64,000 bases of DNA from a virus. The position numbers and the translations under genes are program-made. The notes below the pieces were generated by a model, which made no database searches, was not told where the DNA came from, and was given only the letters and a program-made list of their open reading frames with translations. Positions 54,174-56,956 of this stretch are shown in pieces; positions within the stretch are counted from its first letter, which is position 1, and each line of letters begins with the position of its first letter. The stretch covers positions 1 to 64,000 of IMG/VR virus record IMGVR_UViG_3300044213_000170; one strand, written 5' to 3'.

Positions 54174-55016
54174 TCAAGATTGCCAGTCTATTTTTTCCAG
54201 ACTGAATGGGTAGTTGGCTTCTTTGTAGAATGATTTTCGTTTAGTAAGATGTCGTTTGGCAAATTTACAGGTGCTTGTGATGTCCCAAATTTCAACGTGG
54301 TCCTTGTCTTGAGCTTTCCTAATACCTCGGCCAATAGATTGTATAACCCTAACAAAGCTCTTTCCGGGTTCCACAAGAACCAAATTAAAGATCCGAGGAA
54401 TATTAATCCCCACAGCGGCCACACCATAAGTCGCCACAATAACTTTCCCATCTGCGGTAGCCACCTCATCATATTCTTCCTTTCGATCCTTGGCCTTTGT
54501 TGCGCCACTAACAAATACAGCATCTTTGATTCTGCTGGTCAATTCCTTGCCCGGGCCCACTCTATCTACTAGAACTAATGTGTTACCTGACTCCGCTATC
54601 TTACTGATCATATTGCTCATATAATCAATTCGTTCTTGTGTTTCTAACAAATATCGTAGCTCTTGCTGATAGTCTTTGTATTCTACATAGTCTACCATCT
54701 GTACTATATTTACATGACAATTACTCAAGTGGCCTGCTTCTTGAAGTTCGTTGGCGCTGAGTTTTCCTACCACTGGCCCGATGCAACAAAATAATGCTTG
54801 AGCTGCATATTCTTCTTTTGGTATGGTCCCCGTTAGCCCCCAACGGATCGGTGTATTGGCAAATACGCTGGTTAACAAAGTTTTTAATGCATCTGCTTTA
54901 GCACTATGGCAATTAGATACAACTGCGCCATTAACAATATAGTTGTGATCATTTTGAATATGTAGGTTATACACCAATTCAGGTTTTGTGATTTCTGTTT
55001 TCTTTATTAATTTCAT
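54174..55016 (-). CDS. uvsW: UvsW-like SF2 helicase C-half preceded by the split-intein C-part
   Basis: 35-aa IntC (VYNLHI..HNY..NG..VSN) followed by CH, GLTGT and QSIGRGIR. Confidence 0.9.
   Translation of the reverse strand: MKLIKKTEITKPELVYNLHIQNDHNYIVNGAVVSNCHSAKADALKTLLTSVFANTPIRWGLTGTIPKEEYAAQALFCCIGPVVGKLSANELQEAGHLSNCHVNIVQMVDYVEYKDYQQELRYLLETQERIDYMSNMISKIAESGNTLVLVDRVGPGKELTSRIKDAVFVSGATKAKDRKEEYDEVATADGKVIVATYGVAAVGINIPRIFNLVLVEPGKSFVRVIQSIGRGIRKAQDKDHVEIWDITSTCKFAKRHLTKRKSFYKEANYPFSLEKIDWQS
54912..55016 (-). mobile_element. Split intein C-fragment (IntC)
   Basis: Blocks F/G ending Ser-Asn; +1 residue is Cys. Confidence 0.9.
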
Positions 55017-55912
55017 AATGTTATTAATTTCTTAATTTTTTCCTGTGTGTTAACATCAAACACAGTATAATCAATATTGCCAATTTTCTTAGCAGTTAAA
55101 CAAATCCATTCTTTGTTTACTAGGATTACATTATAACAGCTATTTTCGGCCCATTGCAACAATGCAGTATATTTTGCCATAAATTTTTGTTCGGAACATA
55201 ATTCTATCGGTTTTACTTCGATGCAAGTTTTGGTTATGTGATTTACAAAATCAACTATATAAACACGTTCTTTACTGTTATACTGATATGGTATTCTCAG
55301 AGTTTCATATAATGCATCTTTATCAAAATACTGATACAATGCCTCCCAGCTTGATCGGTAACGCTTACCATTATACTGTGCATCCCAATGAGTATTTCTA
55401 TTATTAGAGTTCGGAGTAAACTTACCTGATAAAATTAGTGATTTCATTAATTTAGAATGTGCCTCTTTTTGATCAGCTGACATTCGTTTGCCGTACATAC
55501 CGTTGTTTTTACCTTTGTTCTTTTCACTAATTTTTAATTTAGATTCTTCTGTATGCGGTGTACCCAGAAATCCTGTTTTCCCTTTGTTCCAAGGAATACC
55601 TGTATTTAAATTGTTTATTATTTTATTTTTATGAATATGCCAACAAGAATTACCACCCAATTTGGCTAATTCTGTCTTGATTTCTTTTTCTGTTTGTGCA
55701 CCGTCAAGTAAGTTATCAACGTTTTTAACCCATATATCCGTTTTTTTGTTTAGCAGGCGCCTTTTAAACTTCTGCAAATCTTTACCACTTATTAATATAC
55801 CGTTTGATAACTCAACTGTTTTATTTTTATAATCCACAATTCTGGTAATTTGACCATAATGTGTTAACAAGTTATTAATATCTACAATCCAACTATTATT
55901 TGTTTTTTTCAT
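55013..55912 (-). mobile_element. Free-standing homing endonuclease (NUMOD3 plus TnsA-like PD-(D/E)XK)
   Basis: PWNKG..HTEESKLKISE..KG..NGMYGK; YRSSWE..YE..IPY..YIVDF..IEVKP. Confidence 0.82.
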
Positions 55913-55939
55913 TAATGCATCTGCTTTAGCTGAATGTAC

Positions 55940-56956
55940 TTATGTTTTATTTATTATTTCGTGATTTTCGGTCAACTCATCGGCCCTGCACCAACCCAAG
56001 TTAGTCAAAAATTTATGGTTACCAGTTACTTCTATTATAGTCCCATTATCAAATTCTAACTTATACATTTTTTCTGACTCAGAATTTGTTAAATTTATGT
56101 GCTGTTTTACCACCGTGTCTGTTTTAAATTCTTTTGCGGTCTCAGAATAATTAATGATTACATCACCAACAGCAACATCTTTTATGGGCTTATATCCGTC
56201 CACTGTTAATACTAACGAATCGCCGGAAAAGCATTCATCGACCATAACACAAACCACATTTTCTACGAATTCACCGATAGTCATATCGGCTTCGTAATTT
56301 TTTGTATTTTTAAGTAAAGCATTGAGGCTTTGCCAAGTGCATATTGTATGTGTACGGTTATACTCTTTCCTGTCGCCGAATAATACCCCAACATCCAGCC
56401 CCATATTAATATAATCGGCTTCGGTCTGTGTCACAAGACTTTTGCTGGGCACAATAACTATGCTACGACCATATTTTTGCACACTTGCAGACAATGCCGC
56501 TGTCATAATAGTTTTACCCGCACCTGTAGCCACTTCCTGTATGCATTGAGGATTTTCTAAAAATTTATTTACAATTTCAACTTGATAATCTCTCATTAAT
56601 ATCGGTTGACCTTCTGCCGGATGTCCTTTTGGCCATTTGATATCTTGGAATGTTGTTTCTGTAACAGGGTCAAATTCAAATGTAGTGCTGTATTGCCGTA
56701 AATCATTTACTTCTATATCGTAACCCCGTTCGTCCAAAAACGGCAAAATTTCGGGCAACAAGTTAATATATGTAGTGCCTCCTAGATTAAAATAAGGAAC
56801 TTTGCCGTCCCAACGACCAAGACGTACTGCTGGCAAGTACCTTGCTCCAGGAATCTCATATTTAAACTTATCAACTAATCGTTTCCGATCAGTTAATTCT
56901 ACGTTATGAAGTTTACAATTAACTTCATCTTTAATTTCAATTATACAGGTTGTCAT
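55940..56956 (-). CDS. uvsW: UvsW-like SF2 helicase N-half fused to the split-intein N-part
   Basis: WDGK, RDYQ, TGAGKT and VMVDE, followed by the intein start CFSGDSLV. Confidence 0.9.
   Translation of the reverse strand: MTTCIIEIKDEVNCKLHNVELTDRKRLVDKFKYEIPGARYLPAVRLGRWDGKVPYFNLGGTTYINLLPEILPFLDERGYDIEVNDLRQYSTTFEFDPVTETTFQDIKWPKGHPAEGQPILMRDYQVEIVNKFLENPQCIQEVATGAGKTIMTAALSASVQKYGRSIVIVPSKSLVTQTEADYINMGLDVGVLFGDRKEYNRTHTICTWQSLNALLKNTKNYEADMTIGEFVENVVCVMVDECFSGDSLVLTVDGYKPIKDVAVGDVIINYSETAKEFKTDTVVKQHINLTNSESEKMYKLEFDNGTIIEVTGNHKFLTNLGWCRADELTENHEIINKT
55943..56233 (-). mobile_element. Split intein N-fragment (IntN, 97 aa)
   Basis: Block A CFSGDSLV, block B VTGNHKF, and GW.RADEL. Confidence 0.9.

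Follow-up and report, generated by a model that had tools for sequence, protein, structure and literature searches.

The fractured uvsW locus

The stretch of DNA analysed here, referred to as the window, comprises 64,000 nucleotides (positions 1 to 64,000 of the IMG/VR virus record IMGVR_UViG_3300044213_000170). Its uvsW gene is divided by a split intein and a free-standing endonuclease gene, and the ORFs of the region are all located on the minus strand (56956-55940, 55912-55013 and 55016-54174). In the order of the genes, the following features are found:

56234..56956, minus strand: UvsW N-extein, 241 aa, ending with VMVDE of helicase motif II (Pfam ResIII, DEAD and UvsW_N)
55940..56233, minus strand: IntN half of the intein, 97 aa with Cys as first residue, plus the TAA stop at 55942-55940 (Pfam and homology)
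55948..55955, minus strand: AATAAATA, a box resembling T4-type late promoters in the final IntN codons (read from the sequence; putative promoter)
55937..55944, minus strand: CATAAGTA, a degenerate version of the family-invariant CATAAATA box, spanning the IntN stop and the first spacer codon
55913..55939, minus strand: 27-nt spacer VHSAKADAL, a half-homing-site copy serving as the endonuclease gene's 5' leader
55013..55912, minus strand: free-standing homing endonuclease gene, 299 aa (Pfam NUMOD3, PHROG, AlphaFold)
54912..55016, minus strand: IntC half of the intein, 35 aa, ending in SN (ORF list and sequence)
54885..54911, minus strand: start of the C-extein, nine codons reading CHSAKADAL; resident homing-site half and second member of a direct repeat
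54174..54884, minus strand: rest of the UvsW C-extein with the helicase C-terminal domain (Pfam Helicase_C)

In tblastn searches the N-extein was 55-82% identical to the uvsW products of many uncultured phages. The IntN half, whose Cys directly follows VMVDE, matched the Pfam families Hint, Intein_splicing and PT-HINT (residues 236-335) and is homologous to the IntN halves in the fractured uvsW genes of the phages S16 and PM2. The ATG of the IntC ORF overlaps the endonuclease stop codon by 4 nt (ATGA). This ORF encodes 35 aa ending in Asn, then the +1 Cys and CHSAK..., and then the Helicase_C domain; the motif ...HNY...N/CH (the slash marks the intein boundary here and below) is conserved throughout the family. 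The remainder of the C-extein is 82-83% identical to that of L005 and L007, the nearest intein-less relatives. Judged from the sequence, the exteins joined by the predicted trans-splicing would recreate motif II as DECH, and uninterrupted UvsW orthologues carry DE[VATC]H as motif II. The locus has the fractured-gene layout, i.e. a split intein with a free-standing endonuclease gene, described by Dassa et al. 2009 (PMC2677866), and its two intein halves (97 + 35 aa, Cys/Cys) add another candidate trans-splicing pair, of which many natural variants are available.

The endonuclease consists of an N-terminal domain, NUMOD3 motifs and a C-terminal PD-(D/E)xK nuclease domain, and matched phrog_22417 and phrog_15427, both annotated as 'endonuclease'. 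A search of the PDB sequences with the endonuclease profile gave no match, and Foldseek with the AlphaFold model (pLDDT 88.7) gave nothing at E <=0.001. In a second structural comparison (VIA), the modelled residues 150-295 resembled TnsA (Z 8.2), Vsr (Z 6.1) and the catalytic domain of I-Bth0305I (Z 5.6). Residues D221, E232 and K234 show little or no variation among 37 endonuclease sequences. The middle ORF is a free-standing PD-(D/E)xK homing endonuclease, with its activity predicted on the basis of the model and these residues. It is present as a single copy, as no further ones were found in the 145-kb record of the phage. Close relatives of the complete cassette were not found in viral and metagenome collections, where the best endonuclease identity was 52% over the full length and 58% for partial sequences; the distant homologues L109-L116 are not clearly located within fractured genes.

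The spacer and the leader family to which it belongs

The 27 nt from the IntN TAA to the endonuclease ATG (55912-55910) read exactly VHSAKADAL, in frame with both ORFs, as the original prediction had described. The spacer had also been described as a copy of the C-extein start CHSAKADAL (from 54911). Indeed, 24 of 27 positions are identical, with the mismatches confined to codon 1 (GTA versus TGC) and codon 3 (TCA versus AGT), and the 19-bp exact direct repeat (54884-54902 and 55912-55930) could be confirmed and ranks first among the repeat families of the 4-kb region. The direct repeats (19-24 bp at these positions) flank precisely the endonuclease gene plus IntC. If the repeats recombined with each other, the endonuclease gene and IntC would be lost, and the remaining IntN, stop codon and extein would constitute a uvsW-null allele. 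As judged from its sequence, the repeat is a predictable instability of the uvsW locus of the window phage.

Protein-guided scans of IMG/VR and JGI metagenomes yielded about 87 fractured uvsW loci. About 70 of these (46 distinct variants), all of them on contigs of uncultured freshwater and saline phages, have a homologous leader of some 35 nt in front of the endonuclease gene. For pairs of loci whose endonucleases share <60% of their residues, the leader is 84% identical and the 4-fold degenerate sites 33.5%, so that the leader is under strong purifying selection. The spacer is thus retained in related fractured uvsW loci, the point on which a check had been proposed; this holds for the approximately 70 loci and not for the more distant fractured uvsW loci of S16 and PM2, which lack a spacer.

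The leader consensus, taken from alignment A4 and its per-column conservation table, consists of a CATAAATA box (TATAAATA in some loci) over the IntN stop, a stretch reading I-H-x-A/T-K-A/G-D/E-V-F, and the ATG. All 39 canonical variants carry CATAAATA or TATAAATA. From the IntN stop to the ATG there are 27 or 28 nt if the TAA is part of the box, or 13 nt if it lies within the leader in another frame. Among the relatives of the window locus the gap between IntN and endonuclease gene measures 13, 28, 29, 30 or 33 nt in differing frames. Due to this variation in length and frame the leader is not conserved as a coding sequence, and read-through or an N-terminal extension of the endonuclease was rejected as its general role. 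One leader (L175) is a 33-nt copy in which the similarity reaches two codons further. In L148, L170, L180 and L192 copy codon 3 is an ATG in frame with the endonuclease; these loci may have a 7-residue N-terminal extension with a start outside the predicted hairpin control (see below).

About 100 intein-less uvsW alleles reading DE/VH[MQS]AKADAL allowed us to trace the leader. Family-wide, leaders and C-exteins are 79% identical at codon positions 1 and 2 and 31% at wobble positions. Codon 1 of the leader is ATA or GTA, never the TGY required by an intein-bearing allele, which means that the template of the leader was an intein-less allele, copied from the very insertion point onward. The copy is old, since the wobble positions of the target have drifted since copying. 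The origin from an intein-less DE-V-H allele that had been proposed for the window spacer agrees with these findings: codon 1 always encodes Val or Ile in the family and never Cys, and VHS alleles with the TCA serine codon exist. Overall, if the homing site is taken to be the intein insertion site, we show by comparison of the sequences that the family leader descends from the C-extein-proximal half of the intein-less homing site. Leaders built from half of the endonuclease gene's own homing site are thus widespread and apparently have not been described before. The individual parts are of known kinds (fractured genes, late-promoter hairpins, I-TevI-type operators); their combination, the traceable origin and the evidence for re-copying given below are new.

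Concerted evolution of each leader with its own C-extein was considered for the whole family and rejected. Own pairs share 15.2 of 24 identities and non-own pairs 15.0 (p = 0.036), and the wobble identity is the 31% mentioned above. One lineage differs. In L150, L197/L216 and L202/L233, phages whose targets read H-[GM]-V-K-D, the leaders have changed at seven positions in codons 2-6, and five of the seven changes are toward their own target. This V-K-D lineage is a second hint, from the sequences, that leaders follow targets.

A predicted control unit, not recognised in the original prediction, explains most of the conservation of the leader. In nearly all members of the family the start codon lies within GTATTTATG, whose exact reverse complement is the 9-nt sequence CATAAATAC. 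The leaders of the relatives are predicted to fold into a 9-bp stem with a 17-nt loop containing AAGGAG or GAGG as Shine-Dalgarno sequence (-6.4 kcal/mol, z about -3). Across 40 variants 94% of the stem cells are paired, and changes from U-A to U-G, of which there are nine, are the commonest type. Double-sided compensatory changes do not occur in the hairpin because its 5' arm is the invariant box. A search against Rfam matched no family, and neither sigma-70 promoters nor intrinsic terminators were found near the junction above the expectation from shuffled sequences. In the window, ATAAATA shows the strongest enrichment of all 7-mers in the regions upstream of ORFs (6 observed versus 0.58 expected), which indicates that the phage uses T4-type late promoters; TATAAATA counted over the whole window is not enriched, and of the two tests the one on upstream regions was informative. 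By analogy to T4 and Aeh1, the canonical leader would be a late promoter set in a hairpin: early and middle transcripts reading through from upstream would hide the AUG in the stem, and late transcripts would start inside the stem and be translated. These promoter and hairpin functions are inferred from the sequences and from that analogy. Three point changes separate a raw copy of the target from this predicted late-promoter-plus-hairpin unit.

A probably re-copied leader in the window and its competing explanations

The leader of the window departs from this consensus at six A4 columns (8, 14, 15, 28, 30 and 34), and all six differences match the sequence of natural VHS alleles. At column 8 the window has a G, which breaks the box, in place of the A found in all 39 of the other variants. 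Two of the nine stem pairs are disrupted by the changes at columns 30 and 34; the window leader folds with -3.5 kcal/mol (z -0.3). Neither version of the Shine-Dalgarno sequence is left. At the same time, the DNA of the spacer is identical at 26 of 27 positions to a natural intein-less DE/VHSAKADAL allele (L095). When 41 different spacers with the canonical length of 27 nt were compared with the intein-less alleles, the window reached 26/27 with its closest allele, and the best scores of the remaining spacers were at most 22 (median 20). The longest exact run in register with the own C-extein is 18 nt in the window and <=7 elsewhere, and 7 of 8 wobble positions match the own C-extein as compared to <=5 in all other cases, a match that is inflated in the window by AT-biased codon use. 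Identity that extends to the wobble positions points to copying of DNA and not to slow selection.

The age of the window state was assessed from the intein and endonuclease sequences. Maximum likelihood trees of the endonuclease and of IntN plus IntC both nest the window in clade II, one of two deep clades. AU tests did not reject the window as sister to all other loci (p 0.40 and 0.37), so that an ancestral window state preserved by selection is formally possible. As the AU tests did not settle the position, clade-wise intein identities were used. The window intein is 73% identical to clade II (mean within clades 74.5%) and 61% to clade I (mean between clades 60.5%), as is typical of a clade II member. 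Since both clades carry the canonical leader, the canonical leader is the older form and the window state is secondary.

We therefore consider the window spacer to be the conserved leader of a lodged homing endonuclease gene that was secondarily overwritten by extein-type sequence, most likely through conversion by an intein-less allele, and assign this reading a probability of about 0.6. The canonical leader would have been replaced over the whole 27 nt by real extein-type sequence, most likely in one short and recent gene-conversion event with an intein-less DE/VHSAKADAL allele met in a mixed infection as template. Alternatively, the phage's own C-extein, 1 kb away, may have served for a partial conversion. 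This C-extein accounts for spacer codons 4-9 only and not for codons 1 and 3. The clade of the window itself (L005, L007-L009) uses AGY serine codons, as does the window C-extein, and the TCA serine codon of the spacer is typical of another uvsW clade; it could also have arisen by drift, as L175 has TCA as well. Codon 4 is GCA in all 11 VHS alleles and GCT in the spacer, and no single known allele explains every base. The conversion would have cost the leader the invariant A of its promoter box, the G of its Shine-Dalgarno sequence and two of nine stem pairs. With these signals removed, expression of the window endonuclease would have to use the upstream AATAAATA and/or translational coupling to IntN. 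The AATAAATA box sits 11 nt upstream of CATAAGTA, the box at the canonical position, and is a possible substitute promoter for the endonuclease gene.

The original prediction had offered two functions or histories for the spacer, i.e. an operator for autorepression of the endonuclease as in I-TevI or a fossil of the invasion that split the intein. The operator idea is reasonable by analogy and somewhat strengthened by our data. As the copy overlaps the promoter, the leader may also bind the endonuclease in the manner of an I-TevI-type operator. According to this reading the spacer is a selected operator: the endonuclease would bind the copy through its N-terminal domain and NUMOD3 helices, block the late promoter and thereby repress itself, and selection for binding, rather than recombination, would keep the copy similar to the target and perfect in the window. 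The copy would stay uncut because the IntN tail replaces the sequence on the cleavage side. Such a role is compatible with the description of the leader given above and differs only in what maintains the likeness to the target. The precedent is the I-TevI operator, which is identical to the homing site at 15 of 20 positions and overlaps a late promoter (PMC2988022). In the family the copy begins within the promoter box, codon 1 being the last 3 nt of the box, and the endonuclease is modular with NUMOD3 elements. In both clades the loop positions C18, T19, A20, A21 and G23 vary little or not at all. Since the two clades place the Shine-Dalgarno sequence differently, some of this conservation is explained neither by box, stem nor Shine-Dalgarno sequence. 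Conservation is lower at the wobble-equivalent positions, which would be expected if the enzyme reads the constrained codon positions, and the V-K-D leaders shift with their target. On the other hand, canonical leaders do not track their own C-extein (15.2 versus 15.0 identities), and selection for binding is not expected to fix wobble-equivalent positions, seven of eight of which match in the window. Moreover, the canonical promoter that should be controlled is itself broken there by the mutated box, and T4 showed no visible change in viability when the I-TevI operator was deleted (PMC2988022). As an account of the window spacer, an operator kept by selection is therefore possible but, in our view, doubtful.

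A neutral and functionless fossil, i.e. target DNA that entered together with the endonuclease gene as it split the intein and has survived untouched by chance, would be in keeping with a register that starts exactly at the insertion point, with the Val codon shared with intein-less alleles and with the basal placement tolerated by the AU tests. Yet neutral sites are near saturation (39% identity at 4-fold sites between the window endonuclease and all its relatives), for which reason a neutral 27-mer could not have remained 26/27 identical to a living allele. The placement of the window in clade II by the intein identities also makes the canonical leader older than the window state. The window copy is thus not a preserved fossil as had been suggested, and we rate this explanation as very unlikely. 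The spacer might instead be a stranded relic of a resident extein start that was displaced by an incoming endonuclease gene together with IntC and a recoded extein start, similar to endonuclease-mediated replacement of gene ends. Direct repeats flanking exactly the endonuclease gene and IntC and the recoding of codons 1 and 3 between the two copies would fit such an event, but its precursor (IntN, stop and extein, lacking IntC) would be non-functional, and IntN directly followed by an intact C-extein was not seen among about 190 uvsW loci. Furthermore, the leader is homologous across about 70 loci in two deep clades, and the copy was therefore not created in this phage, so that we give this scenario still less credence. 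Last, the frame shared with both window ORFs would be compatible with a translated read-through linker. Such a linker, a chance repeat and an assembly chimera, the last having been raised as a caveat for the spacer, are practically negligible in view of the same junction architecture in >70 independently assembled contigs, of a 19-bp repeat that is by far the strongest in the region and of the variable gap lengths and frames in relatives.

Beyond the single overwriting that we prefer for the window, the leader may in general be a rewritable copy of the homing site that is re-templated by broken target alleles during homing encounters, which would update the operator of an autorepressor. We consider this extension speculative and rather improbable. 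If it were true, the window and the V-K-D lineage would represent two rewrites of the leader, the promoter-operator region would be repeatedly matched to the allele pool currently attacked, and the homology would also yield defective by-products in the form of IntN-only or endonuclease-plus-IntC-only insertions.

Relation to known systems and further uvsW loci

Knowledge of how free-standing homing endonuclease genes enter inteins and introns and are then kept silent derives mainly from a handful of T4 examples. In the about 87 loci described here, the predicted control region of the endonuclease is made from the target site itself. The leader preserves a concrete trace of the kind of invasion that both Dassa et al. 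and the collaborative-homing model propose, and it extends the operator layout of I-TevI to split inteins and to a different class of nuclease. The window amounts to a natural experiment in which the copy has probably been rewritten back to target sequence, with loss of the control signals; the operator hypothesis can be tested directly on it, as can the hazard of recombination at the repeat.

In the systems of Dassa et al. 2009 (PMC2677866), too, split-intein halves flank a free-standing endonuclease gene, the 3' end of this gene overlaps the IntC start, and hairpins containing TATAAATA are associated with the endonuclease genes of the fractured loci. As in our loci, a box of the TATAAATA type lies in a hairpin just before the endonuclease start, with two motifs that pair. 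The host gene is different, as uvsW is absent from the text of PMC2677866, and a leader that copies the C-extein start is not reported in that text. In contrast to their hairpins, the window copy lacks the canonical box and most of the stem. For the nuclease, which combines NUMOD3 with a canonical D...ExK domain, we do not claim membership in the Vsr-like family of these authors.

I-TevI binds a sequence over its own late promoter that resembles its homing site at 15 of 20 positions, and thereby represses itself (Edgell et al. [quoted passage not shown] Common to I-TevI and our loci are a homing-site-like sequence directly upstream of the ORF that overlaps a T4-type late promoter, a putative one in the uvsW loci, the lack of the context on the cleavage side, and a modular endonuclease with NUMOD3-type elements. 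However, I-TevI is a GIY-YIG enzyme of a group I intron and not a PD-(D/E)xK enzyme in a split intein, and its binding and repression have been demonstrated, whereas they are putative in our loci. In our case the copy stands in exact codon register from the insertion point and is traceable to intein-less alleles.

Hairpins that sequester the ribosome binding site and contain late promoters are listed in PMC2988022 for I-TevI, I-TevII, I-TevIII, segB and Aeh1 nrdA mobE (Gibb and Edgell 2007, 2009, as reviewed there). The predicted hairpin of the uvsW leaders would share with those of mobE, I-TevI and segB the late promoter in the 5' arm and a translation start that is hidden on longer transcripts. 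In contrast, its stem pairs the box with the AUG itself and keeps the Shine-Dalgarno sequence in the loop, and it is short (9 bp, about -6 kcal/mol).

The fractured uvsW genes of Salmonella phage S16 (gp114/gp114.1/gp115) and Proteus phage PM2 are likewise interrupted at DE/CH by a homologous split intein, and their endonucleases are homologous to that of the window (30-32% identity). In these phages the IntN stop overlaps the endonuclease ATG, so that neither a leader nor a homing-site copy is present, the N-terminal domain of the endonuclease is a different, Cys-rich one, and the C-extein reads CHLATG.... S16 gp114.1 (L001:2623-3498) and the middle ORF of PM2 (L002:2608-3483) are annotated as 'hypothetical protein', their homology to the window endonuclease notwithstanding.

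Several loci in the collection deviate from the common arrangement. Behind a canonical leader the endonuclease ORF has a premature stop in L144:2445-2620 and is truncated in L189:1105-1530. From their sequences, both endonuclease genes seem to be degenerating while the control elements in front of them are intact. In L032:3850-4070 and L035:450-730 a contiguous uvsW mini-intein is present, the linker of which aligns with the canonical IntN tail plus leader ('ACATACAGC-AAAG...'). This looks like a fractured gene that has lost the endonuclease gene and was re-fused in frame, comparable to step IIIa of Dassa et al. In L048:150-400 the split-intein halves of uvsW lie ~50 nt apart with neither an endonuclease gene nor a recognisable leader between them. 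The UvsW N-extein is interrupted a second time between residues 148 and 149 (window numbering, near Walker A) in L110:427-2469 and L032:1755-3362; this insertion comprises ~1.1 kb in L110, where it is in frame within one ORF, and ~1.6 kb in L032, and is probably another intein at a second site. Finally, L217-L222 (around position 2501 in each) are intein-less uvsW alleles with Cys at +1 (DE-C-H), and their C-extein DNA is identical at 29 of 30 nt to the fractured allele of L197/L216. They are either a natural Cys variant pre-adapted to the intein or alleles that have lost the cassette.
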